A stretch of 64,000 nt of DNA from an uncultured delta proteobacterium. Its GTDB lineage: Bacteria; Desulfobacterota; Desulfobacteria; Desulfobacterales; Desulfosalsimonadaceae. The DNA is taken from the NCBI GenBank assembly GCA_963826785.1, contig CAWGYD010000006.1, positions 64,001-128,000 of the forward strand. Reading direction: 5' to 3'. Position 1 is the stretch's first letter. Every line of letters starts with the position of its first letter. Both the position numbers and the translations under genes were made by a program. The notes under the pieces are model-generated. The model was given only the letters and a program-made list of their open reading frames with translations. It was not told the DNA's origin and ran no database searches. Shown here piece by piece: positions 55,392-63,953 of this stretch.

Positions 55392-56633
55392 TCAGGCACC
55401 CCGCCTGGCCGCTATGGTTTCCATCAGCGCTTCCAGCCGGGTAAAGGTAGATTCCTTGCTGTATTTTCGGACATCGGCATGATCCACCTCGATCATGACC
55501 GAAGGGATGTCAAACCGGGCGCTCATGATTTTCTGCTGGTCCAGCTGGGTCACGGAATAAGGCTTGCAGCTGCGGTTGCTGGCATACACGATACCGTCGA
55601 TGCCAAGGCGCTGCACTGCTTCGCCCATGGCCTTTGCCCTCAGCCGAAGGCCATGGGGGCAGACATAGGCGTTCTGGGTCCGGGCCAGGTGCTCCAGCGG
55701 GTCGCCCGCATAGGGATAGGGATTGAAACTTCCCTCCACCGTGCCGATGCAGGACGTGTAGGTGGCGCCGACGATGTTGGCCTTGAGCCGGGCCAGGGTG
55801 GAAGACATGTCCCGGAGCTGATGCCAGGGGGCGATATTGTCCCAGAACAGGCGGTATTTTTCGTCCGGTACCGGAAAATCGTCCGCCGTTACCCGCTGCT
55901 CGGTTTCTTCGGCCAGCAGCCGGTAATGTTGTGCGAACTGCTCGGTGCCCCGGGCGATGAGAAACGGCGCCATCTGCACAAAGGAATCAAAGGCGGTGAT
56001 CCCGGAAGGCCGGTGCTCGGCAAAACCTAAAAAACGCTTCCAGTGCTTGATCCCCTCATCGGTGTAAGCGACGGCCCGGGCCGCCCGATCGGCGTCGTAG
56101 GTCTGCCCGGAAAGGGTTTTAATGGTCGCGATCAGGTCTTTGAACTGGGCCTTGATGTATGCCCGGTCCTTTTCTTTCTGGGGCGAATAGGCAAAAGGGA
56201 CATCTATGATGAAATGGGGGATGCCCAGTTCCCGGTGATGCACATCGAACCACTTGACCAGAAGGGAGCAGTTGTTGTTGTCCGACACCAGCAGGTGGGG
56301 CCTGGGAAGCCCGAAGGTGGGGGAATCTTTGCCCCCGTCGGCAAAACACCCGATATCGATGCGCGCATAGGAGCACAGGTCCATGGAGTAGCCGATGCGC
56401 TCGGCCTTTTCACACTGGAGCGCGCCCACCCCCTTGCCCGCGTTCATGGCCGCATGGCTTTCGGGGACGGCATAGACCACGTTTTCAAAGCCGGCAAACA
56501 GCTCGGCCGGCACATTGATGGCGATCCACACCACGAAAGCCCCCTGGCCGGCCCGGGTATGCAGGTCCATATAGGTGTCCCTGATCAGGCCGGACAGATT
56601 TTTGCCGGCCTTCGTCTTTTGAAAGGATGCCAT
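55392..56633 (-). CDS. 2-hydroxyacyl-CoA dehydratase family subunit (HgdA/FldB/BcrB-like)
   Basis: PESHAA, DLCSYAR, NNNC..LVKW, SNRSCKP, EVDHAD, TRLEALME. Confidence 0.88.
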   Translation of the reverse strand: MASFQKTKAGKNLSGLIRDTYMDLHTRAGQGAFVVWIAINVPAELFAGFENVVYAVPESHAAMNAGKGVGALQCEKAERIGYSMDLCSYARIDIGCFADGGKDSPTFGLPRPHLLVSDNNNCSLLVKWFDVHHRELGIPHFIIDVPFAYSPQKEKDRAYIKAQFKDLIATIKTLSGQTYDADRAARAVAYTDEGIKHWKRFLGFAEHRPSGITAFDSFVQMAPFLIARGTEQFAQHYRLLAEETEQRVTADDFPVPDEKYRLFWDNIAPWHQLRDMSSTLARLKANIVGATYTSCIGTVEGSFNPYPYAGDPLEHLARTQNAYVCPHGLRLRAKAMGEAVQRLGIDGIVYASNRSCKPYSVTQLDQQKIMSARFDIPSVMIEVDHADVRKYSKESTFTRLEALMETIAARRGA

Positions 56634-56634
56634 A

Positions 56635-57762
56635 TCATCTCCGATTCAAAATTTCGCCAAAGGCCCGGATGCGGGCATCATGGGCGCCGGTATGCGCATC
56701 GTCGTCCATGGCGATCTCCAGCTGCAGTGTAAAAATCCCGTCTTCCTTCAATTTCTTTTCCAGAAAAGGAAATTCGAAATATTCGTATTCGCAGAATTTT
56801 TCTCCAATGAACACCACGCCCGCGGCCCCGCTTTCCCGCACCCGCCGGATCAGGGCATCTACCCGTTGGTCTGCGGCATACAGCAGGGTGGAACAGGGAT
56901 AATGACGGCGGTAGAAGTTGTCATAGTATTCGGCGGGATCGGGATCCGGCCCGGGAAGGTCCGCATGCGCGCGATGCAGAAAGGCGATGTCATTTCCCAC
57001 AACCCGCAGCCCGGCTGCATGGATGGAAGAGAGCACCGAAACCGGCGGCGGCAGGATGCCGCTGATGACCACCCCGGCATGTGGGCCCCCGTTTTCCGGT
57101 TGATGCCCGGATGCGCCGGAAATTAATGTCTCCAGCCGGTCTACCCGATCCTGCACCGGCGCAAATGCACCGCCAACCGCTGCATCCACCAGGTCGGTAA
57201 ACATCAGCGCCCCGGAAGCGGCCTGCTGCTGCGCCGTCTGGAAAAGGGCTCCCAGGCGCCGGTACAGATGGATTCCCTCCACGAACTTTTCCGGTGAAAA
57301 ACCGACCGCAAACCGGTCTTCCAATTCCCGGACCAGGCGATTGATTTCATTTTTCAGGTAATGCGATGCATCGGTCTGCTCCGGCGGGACCATGGGGACA
57401 TGAATGCGGAACAACGGCATGGACCGGCCCTTTTCTAAATGATGATTTTCAATGATCTCGGGCAGATTGCGCAGGGTATCGCAGGCATTGTACATGAACA
57501 GCCCGTCAAACCGGTCCCCGGCCTCCGAAAGGAGCAGTTCGGTCATGTGCCGGGCCACGGCGCATGAATAGTTCTGCAGGTGCCGATCGCTTGCGGGGGT
57601 CTCGCGGATATCGGCCCTTAGCCCCCACAGAACCACCGGGACCAGGTCCAGGGCGTAAAACAGCGCCAGGGGCGGATAGAGGGGAAAGCAGCCGATGATT
57701 TTGCCCCCGTTGCTTTTCAGATGGTCGAGCTTGTCGATGGGATTTAGCGGCATGGATTTCAA
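56635..57762 (-). CDS. 2-hydroxyacyl-CoA dehydratase family subunit (HgdB/FldC/BcrC-like)
   Basis: IGCFPLYPP, YSC, NACDTLRN, KFCEYEYFE, RIRAFGE. Confidence 0.88.
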   Translation of the reverse strand: MKSMPLNPIDKLDHLKSNGGKIIGCFPLYPPLALFYALDLVPVVLWGLRADIRETPASDRHLQNYSCAVARHMTELLLSEAGDRFDGLFMYNACDTLRNLPEIIENHHLEKGRSMPLFRIHVPMVPPEQTDASHYLKNEINRLVRELEDRFAVGFSPEKFVEGIHLYRRLGALFQTAQQQAASGALMFTDLVDAAVGGAFAPVQDRVDRLETLISGASGHQPENGGPHAGVVISGILPPPVSVLSSIHAAGLRVVGNDIAFLHRAHADLPGPDPDPAEYYDNFYRRHYPCSTLLYAADQRVDALIRRVRESGAAGVVFIGEKFCEYEYFEFPFLEKKLKEDGIFTLQLEIAMDDDAHTGAHDARIRAFGEILNRR

Positions 57763-58114: not shown

Positions 58115-59113
58115 ATGTTCAGACAAGATCGTTGCGACCTCTGCGGGGACTGCCTGGTGAACTGCAGGTGGATTGAAGCCGGGCGGGACCAGGCGGCCGA
58201 ATGGATGAAAGCCATGATGGAGGGCCGGCCCACCCCGGTGCCGCAGCAGTGCATCACCTGCTATGCCTGCAATGAAACCTGCCCGCAGGACGCCAATCCC
58301 TTCGACCTGATCGCCGCCCTGCAGGAAAAAGCCGCCATCGTTTCCCACCAGCAGATTTCAGAGGCGGAAAACCGGCTGTCCTTTTCCGGCGAACTGCGGG
58401 ATCTTCCGGCCGCCGACCGGATCATGAGCATCTGCGTTTTCGGCAAGACCGACGGCCACCTGATCCAGGGCGAACTTTACGACCTGCCGAAAATCGGTGG
58501 AAAACCCTACTTCTGCTGGATCCTGTTCAGCCACATGGGCGCGGAAAGCATCCAGCACCGGCACGCCAGGGAATTTGTGGACCGGCTGACCGCCACCGGC
58601 GCAAAAGAGGTGGTCTGTTTTCACGACGACTGTTACGCCATGCTGGCCAAGATCGCCCCGGAATACGGCATCGAGGTCCCCTTTCGCCCCGTCCACCTGG
58701 CGGAATACCTGGTGGAATACCTCAAAGCCAATGCGGGGCGCCTCCGGCCTCTCGATCTTGCCCTGGCCTACCAGCGTCCCTGCGCCTCCCGGCATACGCC
58801 GGAGAAGGAGCATTTCATCGACGCGCTTTTTGAACTGTGCGGCTCCACCCGGGTGGCGCGCACCTACGACCGGGGAAACGCCATGTGCTGCGCCGGGGTG
58901 AAACTGCTGCTGGGCATGGGCGACCCAACCCCCGAGCAGGAAAAAAATATCGCCGATGCCAAGGCGGCGGGGGCCAAGGCCATGGTCTGCCTTTGCCCCA
59001 TGTGCATGCACTCCTTGCATCAAATGGCCGCCGATGCGGGGCTCCCCCTGATTTTCATCGGTGACCTGGCCCGGATGGCGCTTGGCGAAATTGATATGCC
59101 CCCTTCATTATAA
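58115..59113 (+). CDS. Fe-S-binding CCG-domain protein (HdrD/GlcF-related)
   Basis: AGGAG RBS; CDLCGDCLVNC and CITCYACNETCP; degenerate CCG1; CCG2 RPC..MCCAG..LCPMC. Confidence 0.85.
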   Translation: MFRQDRCDLCGDCLVNCRWIEAGRDQAAEWMKAMMEGRPTPVPQQCITCYACNETCPQDANPFDLIAALQEKAAIVSHQQISEAENRLSFSGELRDLPAADRIMSICVFGKTDGHLIQGELYDLPKIGGKPYFCWILFSHMGAESIQHRHAREFVDRLTATGAKEVVCFHDDCYAMLAKIAPEYGIEVPFRPVHLAEYLVEYLKANAGRLRPLDLALAYQRPCASRHTPEKEHFIDALFELCGSTRVARTYDRGNAMCCAGVKLLLGMGDPTPEQEKNIADAKAAGAKAMVCLCPMCMHSLHQMAADAGLPLIFIGDLARMALGEIDMPPSL

Positions 59114-59123
59114 GGAGAGTGAA

Positions 59124-60902
59124 ATGAGTTCCCCCAAGCCTCCCCGCCGGATATCCGGCGACGACTTCTATGATGCTCAATTTTTTGAAGGGTACCGGCG
59201 GATCGGATATCCGGAAGAGTGGATCGAAGAAGGCCGGCAGCATGATCCGGGGGATGCCTATGTCATCAGCCACCCCAGCTGGTTTTCCGAACCCATGCCC
59301 GAAGTGCCCATGGTCTCCATCTATCAGCTGTTCAAGCAGACCGTGGTCGCCCACCCGGACGATACGGCCGTCATTTTCCTGGACAAGCCCATCACCTATG
59401 CCGCCTTAGATGACATGATCGGGCGCTATGCCGCCCTCCTTTGCGATCTGGGCATCAAAAAAGGCGATGTGGTGGCCACCATGCTCCCCAATTCCCTGCA
59501 GCACCTGGTGGCTTTCTATGCCGCGGCCATGATCGGCGCCGTGCACAGCCCCGTCGATGTCATGTACCAGGCCAAGGAGATCGAGGCCCAGCTGCGTGAT
59601 TCCGGGGCCAGGACCATCCTGATCATGGACCTGCTCTACGATAAGATCGAAAAACTCAAACAGGAAGGGCTGATCGATCATATCATCATCACCCGGGTGA
59701 GGGACTGGTCCAAGCCGGATGCGCGGGCCCCCCGGGCGCTGAAAATCTATTTCGACATCCCCAAGCGCCCCATGCCCGGGGCCATCGACATGTTCGCCGC
59801 CATTGAAAAGCTTTCCCCGCTTGCCGAACCGGCAACGGTCGCGCCGAAAACCGATCCCGCCCTCCTTTTGTACACCGCCGCCATTACCGGCAAATCAAAA
59901 GGCGTCATCGAAACCCATTTCAACCTGGTGTTCAATTCCATTTCCCATGCCCATGCATTCCGGCCATCCGGAATGGAGCGGGAAGTGAATTTTTCCATCA
60001 TGCCCATGTTTCACACGTCGGGGTATCTGCTTCACCAGCTTCCCGCCATCTACCAGGGGGGAACGGTCATCCTGATCCCGATATTCGACGTGGAAGATTC
60101 CTTCCGGATCATCGACACCTACGGGGTAAACGTCATCTTCGCCCCCCCCACGTTCTTCATTGCGCTGATGGCCCGAAAGGACCTGATGGAAGCCTATGAG
60201 CTCGACCGCATCCGGGTCACCATCTCCTGCGCCGCACCCGTCAAGAAGGAGGTTCAGGAACAATGGCGAAAAATGACCGGGCTTACACTCATCAACGGGT
60301 GGGGGATGACCGAAACCAACAGCGGCGGGATCATTTCCATTTCCGGGATCAAGGAGAAACTCGACTCCATCGGCGTTCCGCTCTATTCCGAAGTCAAAAT
60401 CACGGACATGGAAGGAAACATCCTGGCCCGGAACGAGGAAGGGGAAATCTGCTACCGGGGGCTTCAGGTTGCCGCCGGATACCTGAACCAGCCCGATGAA
60501 ACCGAGTCCACGTTCATGCCGGACGGCTGGCTTCGCACCGGTGACCGGGGATATATCGATGACGAGGACTTCGTCTTTTTTTCGGGCCGCATGAAAAATA
60601 TTGTCATTTCTTCCGGCTACAACATTTCCCCCCTGGAGGTCGAACACACGCTGTATCTGCATCCGGCGGTGGAGCAGGCGGTGGTGGTGGCCCAGCCGGA
60701 CCCGAAACGGGGAGAGAGCCTCAAGGCGGTCATTTCGCTGAAGCCGGAATACCATGGAGCCGTCACCGAAGAGGACATGATCAGCTTCTGCCGGGAGAAC
60801 CTGGCGGCTTTCAAGGTCCCCCGCATCATCGAGTTCCGGGAAACCCTGCCCAAGAGCGCGGTGGGAAAAATCCTGCGCCATGCGTTGCGTGATCCGGAAT
60901 AG
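59124..60902 (+). CDS. Long-chain acyl-CoA ligase-like AMP-binding protein
   Basis: AGGAG RBS; YTAAITGKSKG (variant P-loop), PMFH, GWGMTE, WLRTGD, PKSAVGKILR. Confidence 0.88.
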   Translation: MSSPKPPRRISGDDFYDAQFFEGYRRIGYPEEWIEEGRQHDPGDAYVISHPSWFSEPMPEVPMVSIYQLFKQTVVAHPDDTAVIFLDKPITYAALDDMIGRYAALLCDLGIKKGDVVATMLPNSLQHLVAFYAAAMIGAVHSPVDVMYQAKEIEAQLRDSGARTILIMDLLYDKIEKLKQEGLIDHIIITRVRDWSKPDARAPRALKIYFDIPKRPMPGAIDMFAAIEKLSPLAEPATVAPKTDPALLLYTAAITGKSKGVIETHFNLVFNSISHAHAFRPSGMEREVNFSIMPMFHTSGYLLHQLPAIYQGGTVILIPIFDVEDSFRIIDTYGVNVIFAPPTFFIALMARKDLMEAYELDRIRVTISCAAPVKKEVQEQWRKMTGLTLINGWGMTETNSGGIISISGIKEKLDSIGVPLYSEVKITDMEGNILARNEEGEICYRGLQVAAGYLNQPDETESTFMPDGWLRTGDRGYIDDEDFVFFSGRMKNIVISSGYNISPLEVEHTLYLHPAVEQAVVVAQPDPKRGESLKAVISLKPEYHGAVTEEDMISFCRENLAAFKVPRIIEFRETLPKSAVGKILRHALRDPE

Positions 60903-61066
60903 GAAGTCGGCCCTGAAATTAATTGGCGTTGCCAGCGTCGGGTTCATCCCCTGGCCCAAAGGACACGAACCGGCGGCATAAACCAGATGGTGGCCGGACG
61001 AAACATAGATATTTGATCAAAAAGACGGTTTCGTTCCGCCACTGAATATTGAGTGTCCCATATCCG

Positions 61067-62461
61067 ATGAATACCAATTCAAAGTTCTTCTCCGGACTCG
61101 CTGCGGCTGTCTGCATCTTTTTTCTGACGGGCGCGCCGGCGGCTTTTGCCCAAACGGAGACATACGCCCTTTCCGACCTGTACCAGGCGGCCCTGAAATC
61201 CGCCCAGCAGATCCGCATTGCCAAAAACCAGTTGTTTATCGCCGAAAAAGACCAAAACCGGGCCTTTTCCGTGCTGCTGCCCCAGCTGTCCGCCTTTGGC
61301 GATTACATCCGCTACAGCGAAAGCAGCCTGATTCAGCCGGAAACCAATTATGATTACGGCATCAAGCTCCAGCAGCAGTTTACGTTAAACGGCAAGGAAC
61401 TGATCCTGCTGAGGGCGGCAAAGGACACCATCAAGCAGCGCCGGTATGACCTGGATTCGGTTAAGGAATCCTATCTTTACCAGGTGGCGGTGGCCTATTA
61501 TGAAGTAGTGAACCGGAAAAAGCAGGTGGAGATTCTCAGGGAAAATGTCAAGCGGCTGACCGCCTATCGGGATGCGGTCAGGATCAAACTCAAGCTGGAG
61601 GAAGTCCCCAAGACCGACCTGCTTCGGACGGAAGCCGAGCTTTCCGGCGCCGCGGCCGAGCTGATCCGGGCGGAAAATGAATGGGTGTACGCCCGATCCG
61701 CCCTGGCCCGCATGGTGAACATTTCCCCGGATTTTTCCCTGTCCCCCCCGGAAACGAGAGTAAACGCGCAGATGCCCATCCAGGGGCGGCTGGATGAGTT
61801 TGTCGATATCGCCCTGAAAAGCCGGGCGGACATGAAATCCGCTGAGATGTCGGTGAGCCTTGCCGATGATGACATTTCCATATCCAAGGGAGACTACTGG
61901 CCGGTGGTGGGGATCGAAGCGGGCTACCTGGCCCAGGAGACCGACCCTTCCGTGCTGTCCCAGGACAGCATATACGGCGCCGCCAACATCAACCTGATCC
62001 TGTTCGACTGGGGACTTCGCAAGGGAACGGTCAGCCAGAACCGGGCCCGGAAACGCATCGCGAGCCTCCAGGCGGATGAACTGGCCAAGCAGATCGCCCT
62101 GGAAGTGGAAAGGGCCTGGCTGGCCTTGAACACGGCCCAGAATACCATTACCGCCCTGCAGGATAAGCTGGTTTTTTCCCGGGCGGCTTACGAGGCCGTC
62201 ACCCTGCAGTTCAAGCTGGGTCAGGCCGACAGCCTGGACGTGCTGGACGCCAATACCACCCTGCGCAATGCCGAGCGCGAACTGACGGAAGCCGAATTCG
62301 TCCTTTCCCTGTCTAAAATCGCGCTGCAGCGGGCCCAGGGGATTTTTCTCGATCAAATCACCGCCGGCGACATGAGCCGCGGCTGTGCTCCCGAAAAATC
62401 AGATGATGCCGCGCAGCGGGGTGGGGCGCTTTCAAGGAACCTGATAAAGAACTCTTTTTAG
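61067..62461 (+). CDS. TolC-family outer-membrane efflux protein
   Basis: Signal peptide; two OEP repeats (LLPQLS..VAVAYY; YWPVV..LFDWG..LDVLDA). Confidence 0.92.
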   Translation: MNTNSKFFSGLAAAVCIFFLTGAPAAFAQTETYALSDLYQAALKSAQQIRIAKNQLFIAEKDQNRAFSVLLPQLSAFGDYIRYSESSLIQPETNYDYGIKLQQQFTLNGKELILLRAAKDTIKQRRYDLDSVKESYLYQVAVAYYEVVNRKKQVEILRENVKRLTAYRDAVRIKLKLEEVPKTDLLRTEAELSGAAAELIRAENEWVYARSALARMVNISPDFSLSPPETRVNAQMPIQGRLDEFVDIALKSRADMKSAEMSVSLADDDISISKGDYWPVVGIEAGYLAQETDPSVLSQDSIYGAANINLILFDWGLRKGTVSQNRARKRIASLQADELAKQIALEVERAWLALNTAQNTITALQDKLVFSRAAYEAVTLQFKLGQADSLDVLDANTTLRNAERELTEAEFVLSLSKIALQRAQGIFLDQITAGDMSRGCAPEKSDDAAQRGGALSRNLIKNSF

Positions 62462-62570: not shown

Positions 62571-63953
62571 ATGACGGACGACCGACAGGACACACCCGCC
62601 CCCCCGTTTGCCAAAAAACTGCTGAAACGGCTGTGGGGGCTTCTTCCCATTGCGGCGCTGGTCGCAATCATCACGGTGCTTTCCATGATGATTGCGGCCA
62701 AAACAGACAAGCTCGATGCCCTGAAGAAGGGGATCGACACACTGGAGGCCATGGAACTGGCCATCGGCCAGGCCGATGGCGTGGTGTCCGTGGTCCAATC
62801 CGCAAAGGATCCAAACGACGCCGCCCAGAAGCTGGCCGAGAAGTTTTCACTTACCCCGGATCAGGCCAAAAGCATCCTGCACATGTCCATCGCTTCTTTG
62901 GCCGCATCTGAAAAGGCCCGGCTGGAAAAGCAGATCGCCTATATCAAGGGGCAGATCGCGGCCAACAAGCTCGACATCGAACCCGAGCGCCTGGATGTGA
63001 ACGTGGTGGCCCTTGCGCTTTCCCCCCGTGAACTCAGGGACCGGATCAACCTGCCCGGGGTGGTGGAACCCTGGGTGAAATACAATATCGTGGCCGAGGT
63101 CCGGGGGGAGGTCAGGGAAAAGCGGATTGAAAAAGGGACCCGGGTGAAGAAAGGGGATGTCATCGCGATACTGGATGACCGGGACCATGAAATTGCCCTG
63201 GAGGCGGCCAAAGCCTCCTATGACACCGCCCTGGCCTCGAAAAACCGGCTGGAAAAACTCTATGCCGAACAACTGGCCAGCCGCTCCCAGTTAGACGATA
63301 TCACCGCCCAGATGGAACAGTACAAGGCCCAGATGGACAGCGCCCTGCTCAACCTGGAGCGCTCCACCATCCGCAGCCCCATCGACGGGATCATCAACGA
63401 CCTGTTTGTGGAAAAAGGAGAGTACGTCAACGTGGCCGAACCCGTGGCCGAAGTCATCCGGATGGACAGGATCAAGGTCAGCGTGGGGATTCCCGAATCC
63501 GACGTGAGCGCGGTGGGCAGAGTGTCGGAATTTACGGTCGCCTTCGATGCCTTGAACGGCCGGGCGTATCCGGCAAAAAAGCACTTCCTGTCGCGCTCCA
63601 GCGATCCCAATGCCCGGCTCTACAAGCTGGAACTGGAAATCGACAATCCGGACAACGAGATCCTGCCGGACATGTTCGCCCGGGTGGATATCATCAAGAA
63701 GGAGGTGCCCGAAGCCATAACCATCCCCCTTTATTCCATCATCACCTTAAACGATGTCCAGACCGTATACGTGGTCAACGACAATTTCGCCCATGCCCGG
63801 CAGATCAAGACCGGGATCCAGGAAGGCTGGCGCATCCAGGTCACCGAAGGGCTCTCCCCCGGAGACCGGGTCATCGTGGTGGGACACCGCCGGGTCAGCG
63901 ACGGCCAGAAGGTCAATCTGATCCGCACGATCGACAGCATGACGGAATTGTAA
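62571..63953 (+). CDS. RND efflux periplasmic adaptor (MFP) with a GyrA/ParC-like helical insert
   Basis: N-terminal TM; lipoyl halves AEVRGEV..KGDVIAILD and IRSPIDGII; GIPESDV; ILPDMFARV; GLSPGDRVIVVG. Residues ~45-130 are GyrA-like. Confidence 0.92.
   Translation: MTDDRQDTPAPPFAKKLLKRLWGLLPIAALVAIITVLSMMIAAKTDKLDALKKGIDTLEAMELAIGQADGVVSVVQSAKDPNDAAQKLAEKFSLTPDQAKSILHMSIASLAASEKARLEKQIAYIKGQIAANKLDIEPERLDVNVVALALSPRELRDRINLPGVVEPWVKYNIVAEVRGEVREKRIEKGTRVKKGDVIAILDDRDHEIALEAAKASYDTALASKNRLEKLYAEQLASRSQLDDITAQMEQYKAQMDSALLNLERSTIRSPIDGIINDLFVEKGEYVNVAEPVAEVIRMDRIKVSVGIPESDVSAVGRVSEFTVAFDALNGRAYPAKKHFLSRSSDPNARLYKLELEIDNPDNEILPDMFARVDIIKKEVPEAITIPLYSIITLNDVQTVYVVNDNFAHARQIKTGIQEGWRIQVTEGLSPGDRVIVVGHRRVSDGQKVNLIRTIDSMTEL

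Follow-up and report, generated by a model that had tools for sequence, protein, structure and literature searches.

A GyrA-type C-gate domain in the stalk of an RND efflux adaptor: a putative dimerisation clasp

Near the end of the window, by which we mean the whole 64,000-nucleotide stretch analysed, lies a gene for an RND periplasmic adaptor into whose helical stalk an 80-residue piece of GyrA type has been inserted. The insert is a true homologue of the GyrA/ParC C-gate, not a topoisomerase, and its identity, its fusion to the adaptor and its conservation are near certain. As to function, we favour the reading that the insert is a clasp that would pair adaptor protomers, and we put the probability of that reading at about 0.5.

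Results

The adaptor gene and its neighbours

The features of the adaptor gene and its operon are collected in Table 1. The operon order is TolC-like gene, adaptor gene, AcrB-family transporter gene, and in the neighbourhood comparison a TolC-like gene was also found upstream of the adaptor in most related loci. By Pfam and Foldseek the C-terminal 320 residues of the adaptor are those of an ordinary RND adaptor; the adaptor model matched TMexC, AcrA and MexA (E 1e-28), and the best PDB match of the transporter was MexK (E 5e-106). With a four-domain core, an inner-membrane anchor and genes for an RND transporter and an outer membrane factor alongside, the 62571-63953 product belongs, judged from its sequence, to the RND adaptor family, in which its domain architecture is new, and a tripartite pump is predicted.

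Table 1. Features of the adaptor gene and its operon (window positions unless a locus is named)
Feature	Position	Strand	Basis
TolC-like outer membrane factor, 470 aa, listed TTG start	61049..62461	+	Pfam OEP, E 5.7e-48
RND periplasmic adaptor (membrane fusion protein), 460 aa, with C-gate insert	62571..63953	+	Pfam HlyD_D23, HlyD_3
N-terminal TM anchor, about aa 22-43	62634..62699	+	hydropathy, single peak, no Cys
GyrA-type insert, 80 aa, aa 55-134: coiled-coil arm 1, globular C-gate head, return arm	62733..62972	+	
C-gate head itself (aa 68-111), corresponding to M. tuberculosis GyrA 401-444	62772..62903	+	model 1-94 vs 8s7k 377-469
Predicted two-fold interface centre, aa 102-114; M105-S106-I107 vs GyrA M-R-L	62874..62912	+	complex prediction contacts
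Adaptor core: membrane-proximal, beta-barrel, lipoyl and alpha-hairpin domains	62997..63953	+	Pfam, model, Foldseek
AcrB-family RND transporter, gene start, 1095 aa	63972..64000, past window end; L001 5973-9260	+	Pfam ACR_tran, E 1.9e-204

The adaptor has a single TM segment, marked by 19-residue hydropathy windows starting at aa 16-30, and five K/R residues are found in aa 1-21. Membrane sidedness was read from the positive-inside rule. Because there is one TM segment with five K/R residues before it and no Cys, and with the adaptor core downstream, the insert is predicted to lie on the periplasmic side, as the first-pass annotation of this DNA had proposed.

Other genes lie near the operon. 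Downstream, at L001 9594-13748, is a gene for a 1384-aa GGDEF + AAA + HEAT protein, and a homologue is found near the operon in 4/19 insert-bearing loci vs 0/61 others, many of the loci being short. A weak C-gate match in this protein in the search of its own genome (E 0.18) was rejected as due to chance; the protein has no PF00521 match. Close to the operon on the other side, at 55392-57762 of the minus strand, are two genes which we take to resemble 2-hydroxyacyl-CoA dehydratase subunits. Homologues of these genes are immediately upstream of the adaptor in 2/19 insert-bearing loci (L037 and L083), and the neighbourhood comparison found no outer membrane factor gene at either. Together with the acyl-CoA ligase gene at 59061-60902, the dehydratase-like genes near the operon hint at acyl-compound metabolism.

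The insert is a C-gate homologue

Alignment with orthologues that lack it gives a net insert of exactly 80 aa (columns 59-138). The first-pass annotation had described an extra segment of about 85 aa at 62703-62960; the reading frame and the segment are where it placed them, and the element is the same, with only the extent corrected to that in Table 1. The insert was without indels in 15/15 aligned carriers, was missing from the 4 non-carriers in the same alignment, and was placed by the alignment between the anchor and the membrane-proximal domain, in the helical stalk. The spacing from TM centre to core is 111-115 residues in 18/19 carriers, the remaining sequence having been cut short in the measurement, whereas it is 29-37 residues in 59/60 measurable non-carriers and 76 in L041.

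Residues 38-133 matched Pfam PF00521, DNA_topoisoIV, at model positions 321-414 of 432 with 35.2 bits (E 8.4e-9), the curated cut-off being 31 bits. In a phmmer search of the PDB, the best match was B. subtilis GyrA (4ddq; E 2.2e-5), aligned over 70 residues without a gap, followed by S. aureus ParC (2inr) and S. aureus GyrA. In tblastn the GyrA of the same genome aligned to the insert through its residues 380-473 of 829, with 33% identity (E 4.5e-7). A profile of the insert found matches in 147/151 genomes of the order, with GyrA/ParC recovered in nearly all. The insert has no WHD, tower, catalytic Tyr or CTD, and so is not a type IIA topoisomerase subunit A.

Structure prediction agreed with the sequence searches. 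The insert-only model, built with 20 insert sequences, had a pLDDT of 83.9, and its top Foldseek match was again 4ddq (TMq 0.84-0.85), the GyrA matches having TMq 0.84-0.87 and, in the best rows, rmsd about 1.5. Against the 48,161 chains of VIA, type IIA topoisomerases took all of the 12 best places: S. aureus GyrA 367-459 came first (Z 14.3, rmsd 2.7 over 93 aligned residues) and human Top2 beta twelfth (Z 7.4), ahead of a thirteenth row at Z 5.8. The match to M. tuberculosis GyrA 377-469 takes in the C-gate, defined as GyrA 401-444 (PMC2923608), along with short stretches of the helices on either side. In the full-length adaptor model (pLDDT 91.6, pTM 0.62) the TM helix runs unbroken from aa 13 to 66 and is followed by the head and by a return helix, aa 112-130. 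The predicted fold is thus a helical head on an antiparallel coiled coil, as in the GyrA/ParC C-gate. The homology claimed in the first-pass annotation, and the near gap-free alignment on which it was based, are borne out by these searches.

The same annotation had also offered the insert as a spacer that would let the pump span a wider periplasm, a role to which the longer TM-to-core sequence distance of the carriers would be suited. The predicted shape is against it, the insert being an out-and-back hairpin and its gyrase counterpart entering and leaving side by side. Further, the alpha-hairpin of the adaptor has no indels relative to insert-less orthologues, and neither the RND transporter nor the outer membrane factor is lengthened. 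Because none of the three is longer, the span of the pump is presumably unchanged, and we regard a spacer as very improbable.

Distribution of the fusion

The insert was found in 21/58 genomes of the window's family. The orthologous adaptor core was present in 20/58 of these, and the insert adjoined the core in 20/20, which answers the question, raised in the first-pass annotation, whether the fusion is conserved; in the 21st insert-bearing genome, G174, the insert is in a short open frame. Full-length alignment to the adaptor was obtained for 12/40 relatives. Among the best 80 of 233 orthologue loci, 19 carry the insert and 61 are without it, and since it is lacking from these 61 the insert is not required for this type of pump. 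The titles of the 19 insert-carrying loci bear Desulfobacterales or higher-rank labels. The same fusion is found in other families too (L040, L049 and P0009), and it accounts for six of the seven metagenome loci, the seventh being GyrA. Further out the fusion is rare: among the matches listed, at least 3/151 genomes of the order had fusion-level scores. At E 1e-19, with the best 12 or fewer candidates per genome considered, the fusion was found in 0/400 other genomes of the phylum, a search that divergent carriers could escape. The lineage to which the fusion is confined is a modest one, represented mainly by metagenome-assembled genomes.

The profile searches turned up two other kinds of frame. 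Short insert-matching frames in G064 (L135) and G069 (L136) turned out to be frameshifted gyrA genes, the frameshifts probably being sequencing errors. In G025:C14 and G044:C350, GyrA-like matches are in frames of about 1190-1205 aa vs the usual 810-890 aa; these are possibly inteins or fusions.

Might the fusion be an assembly chimera, or a recent accident? The genomes searched included no second genome of the window's own genus, which would leave room for such an artefact. On read coverage of 62690-62980, a point raised in the first-pass annotation, sparse contigs gave minor evidence, one of 270 bases covering 62749-63018 with 1 mismatch and bridging the right junction only. The recurrence of the fusion in 20 other genomes of the family, in the six metagenome loci and in the other families above, refutes a chimera. 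The genome's own gyrA is, moreover, intact on another contig and has no DNA-level likeness to the insert, and the GC and GC3 of the insert match those of the gene. The chance of an artefact is negligible.

Origin of the insert

In the adaptor-core tree, 20/22 carriers fall in one clade (SH-aLRT 100), with L040 and L049 outside it, in positions without starred support. A single clade of all 22 carriers was not rejected (p-AU 0.256), a result that does not prove such a clade. When the inserts were placed in a tree with 46 GyrA segments, all 26 formed one group with 91/88 support, from an alignment of only 77 columns. A single origin of the insert is the simplest reading of these trees and of the shared G54 and I122 described below.

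The insert has gyrase spacing, while the parC-like protein of the same genome has a 3-residue gap there, which favours gyrA rather than parC as the donor gene. The identity of the insert to the order's GyrA set is about the same as to a broad GyrA set. Besides the intact gyrA, the genome has a parC-like gene, and the insert showed no DNA-level likeness to either. Its GC and GC3 (0.59 and 0.76) are like those of the adaptor core (0.59 and 0.79). From the lack of DNA-level likeness to the genome's own genes and from the matching GC and GC3, the insertion event is judged to be old. The alignment indicates that an ancestor of this Desulfobacterales lineage took an in-frame copy of the gyrA stretch encoding the C-gate tip into the adaptor stalk.

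Residues kept, lost and gained

To see what the insert retained, 26 inserts, some of them close kin, were compared with 28 GyrA proteins of the order. The buried positions L58, A64, V71, A84, L88, Q98, A99, L107 and L110 are kept in the inserts. The arginines of the GyrA motif M-R-L-x-R-L are not: R is found at aa 106 and at aa 109 in 1/26 inserts each vs 28/28 GyrA proteins. At aa 108 no insert has R; GyrA of this order has Q there. In S. aureus GyrA, the basic patch R429/R431/R432 faces the T-segment, and these residues are needed for supercoiling (PMC8368997); the C-gate basic patch for T-segment passage is not found in the inserts. The GyrA T-G-L that follows the M-R-L motif is not kept either. 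The insert of L040 is the least changed, with its M-R-L motif intact. The insert has thus shed the arginines that handle DNA and kept its hydrophobic core, and the loss of the DNA-facing arginines had been missed by the first-pass annotation.

Conserved residues unlike those of GyrA have also appeared: D80 in 23/26 inserts, H104 in 19/26 and P106 in 20/26. G54, at the left junction, is found in 26/26 inserts where GyrA has R, and I122 in 25/26 where GyrA has mostly Y.

These changes bear on whether the insert could serve to capture CcdB or another gyrase poison as a decoy, or could bind DNA. The expressed GyrA14 fragment titrates CcdB (PMC3001019), and VIA pairs the insert with the GyrA14 chain of 4ely at Z 10.8. 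The CcdB contacts Gln456, Asp460, Arg462 and Gln464 (PMC3001019) correspond by motif to aa 100, 104, 106 and 108, which in the inserts are mostly K, H, P and S/G. The Arg462-equivalent position is P or S in 24/26 inserts, and gyrase is refractory to CcdB when Arg462 is changed to Ser, Ala or Cys (PMC1635281). Further, the insert is predicted to face the periplasm, not the cytoplasm. Given the lost Arg462 equivalent and the periplasmic location, a CcdB decoy is excluded for practical purposes, and this class of reading as a whole is extremely unlikely.

Selection on the insert

A different possibility is that the insert is a passenger that does nothing for the pump: the stalk would tolerate additions at this point, and the sequence would be retained only in so far as it has to fold and leave export unblocked. 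In the L041 adaptor (1696-2961) the same stalk position holds about 42 aa of unrelated sequence, from which we take the site to be permissive. The L041 insert was considered as a C-gate remnant and rejected, since it scored under 0 bits against the C-gate profile. A passenger is also in line with the 61 insert-less loci among the best 80 and with the faster evolution of the insert, mean identity among carriers being 44% for the insert against 65% for the core. Against it, the insert has not been lost from any of the 20 family genomes that have the core, there is no indel over its 80 aa, and D80, H104 and P106 are newly conserved. The dN/dS of the insert is near that of the core, at 0.13-0.40 in 9/10 pairs with the tenth saturated, compared with 0.09-0.16 for the core, the pairs not being independent. 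These dN/dS values indicate that the insert is under purifying selection, and a mere passenger is in our judgement unlikely.

The replacement of gyrase surface residues by family-specific ones would equally suit a monomeric docking knob, with the head binding, instead of a second adaptor, the porter domain of the RND transporter, the cell wall or some other protein of the envelope. The RND partner has 27 clade-specific substitutions, 9/27 of them in aa 644-662, a stretch of the transporter (L001 5973-9260) which we take to be, perhaps, the switch-loop region of AcrB; a PDB search with RND aa 631-706 gave no match, so that this mapping was not confirmed. If it is that region, the substitutions in aa 644-662 would hint at a changed substrate. 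But 26/27 of the RND marks are common to 13/14 carriers, as ancestry within one clade predicts, and neither the RND transporter nor the outer membrane factor has a compensating insert. We consider a docking knob rather improbable, the more so given the homodimer model below.

The insert as a candidate adaptor clasp

The captured piece comprises the whole C-gate head with both arm stubs, the unit of the primary dimer interface. In gyrase, the C-gate is the primary dimer interface (PMC2923608), with the M-x-L motif region located at it (PMC8368997); the interface buries 1100-1200 A^2 and is stabler than the DNA gate (PMC12041858). The isolated GyrA14 fragment is described as mediating GyrA dimerisation (PMC3001019). 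For adaptors, in turn, the dimer is seen as the unit of function, three dimers making up the assembly, and AcrA dimers that have been fused are able to complement (PMC4446572). Taken with the fold, the retention in the family and the selection described above, and with the modelling below, these points lead us to favour a clasp.

In the arrangement that we propose, the TM helix would extend as arm 1 and place a small helical head roughly 25 residues out from the membrane, from where arm 2 would run back antiparallel, as predicted by the model. Two heads would then pair about a two-fold axis, clipping two adaptors together near the membrane. From the geometry, such a head-to-head pair should be compatible with two TM anchors, with the arms both directed toward the membrane. 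The clasp would pre-form an adaptor dimer, the building block of a 3:6:3 pump, and might thereby make assembly with the RND trimer and the TolC-like channel more stable or faster.

Pairing of adaptor protomers had been put forward in the first-pass annotation, and what support it gained came from modelling. The insert homodimer scored 0.60 vs 0.00 for the best of 3 controls, a score that may be memory of the solved GyrA dimers; the mark for complexes is reached by 20/30 true pairs and 1/23 single chains. Across the homodimer runs, at least 95% of the contacts agreed and pLDDT was at least 83, with the two-fold interface centred on aa 105-107. As dimers of GyrA have been solved, the score may reflect likeness rather than binding. 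Conservation is only marginally higher at the predicted interface positions than at the others (2.22 vs 1.66; one-sided p 0.05), a difference confounded by burial. Against a clasp, the centre of the interface is altered, R having become P in 20/26 inserts, and this change together with the lost T-G-L could weaken pairing.

Discussion

Detached C-gate tips are not confined to this adaptor. Of the best 150 of 3575 matches to the insert profile, 141 were GyrA/ParC or fragments, 6 were adaptor fusions, among them P0009 and P0019, both divergent and of full length, and 3 were other proteins. A Nocardia iowensis protein (P0008) has Clp_N with two tandem C-gate tips and has one relative at 66%; P0154 is a Nocardia-type record with detached tips like P0008. 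P0027, a GNAT protein with a detached tip, and P0116, a two-copy tip protein, are each known from a single record. Stand-alone tips are suggested by Atlas clusters of 77-97 aa, which with scores of 0.76 and 0.85, under 0.9, are leads only and may include fragments. We tentatively suggest, with rather more doubt than we attach to the clasp itself, that the C-gate tip is a portable dimerisation module reused several times, here as a natural adaptor clasp that possibly opens and closes to control hexamer assembly.

The first-pass annotation knew of no description of this architecture, and our survey of the literature, covering mostly openly readable main texts, likewise found no account of a C-gate insert in an RND adaptor. 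In one adaptor review, the words 'gyrase' and 'topoisomerase' occur 0 times (PMC4446572), and in the first 300,000 characters of a second, gyrase is named once, as a microcin target (PMC8277102). Databases label the insert-bearing proteins as plain RND adaptor subunits.

The fusion is of interest as a piece of an essential cytoplasmic DNA enzyme apparently reused across the membrane, the signature being that the DNA-facing residues are lost and the core kept. Close relatives with and without the insert allow comparison. If the adaptors are paired, the fusion would be a natural test of the adaptor dimer as the assembly unit of tripartite pumps, and the insert would be a dimer module of about 80 aa with its N and C termini side by side. 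In annotation, PF00521 matches on short or membrane proteins need not mean broken gyrase genes.

The insert resembles the GyrA/ParC C-gate (GyrA14; 4ddq, 5iwi and 4ely) in fold and predicted two-fold interface, with a mean identity of 22-40% over 73 positions when compared with the order's GyrA proteins; unlike GyrA, it comprises about 80 of about 830 residues, has lost the DNA-facing Arg, and is predicted to be periplasmic and membrane-anchored. The adaptor shares with AcrA, MexA and TMexC the four-domain core and an operon with an outer membrane factor and an RND transporter, but it has a TM anchor and no lipid (no Cys), and a folded 80-aa domain replaces a short linker. Extra modules or enforced pairs are known from the N-terminal domain of CusB, the C-terminal domain of SilB, fused DSY0927, TriAB and engineered AcrA tandems (PMC4446572); as that source describes them, these extras bind metal or duplicate the adaptor, and none is topoisomerase-derived. 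The insert-less orthologues of the adaptor in other Desulfobacterales, of about 380-390 aa, have the same operon, the same hairpin length and an RND partner with about 60-73% identity, and they differ in having a stalk of 29-37 rather than 111-115 residues, measured from TM centre to core.
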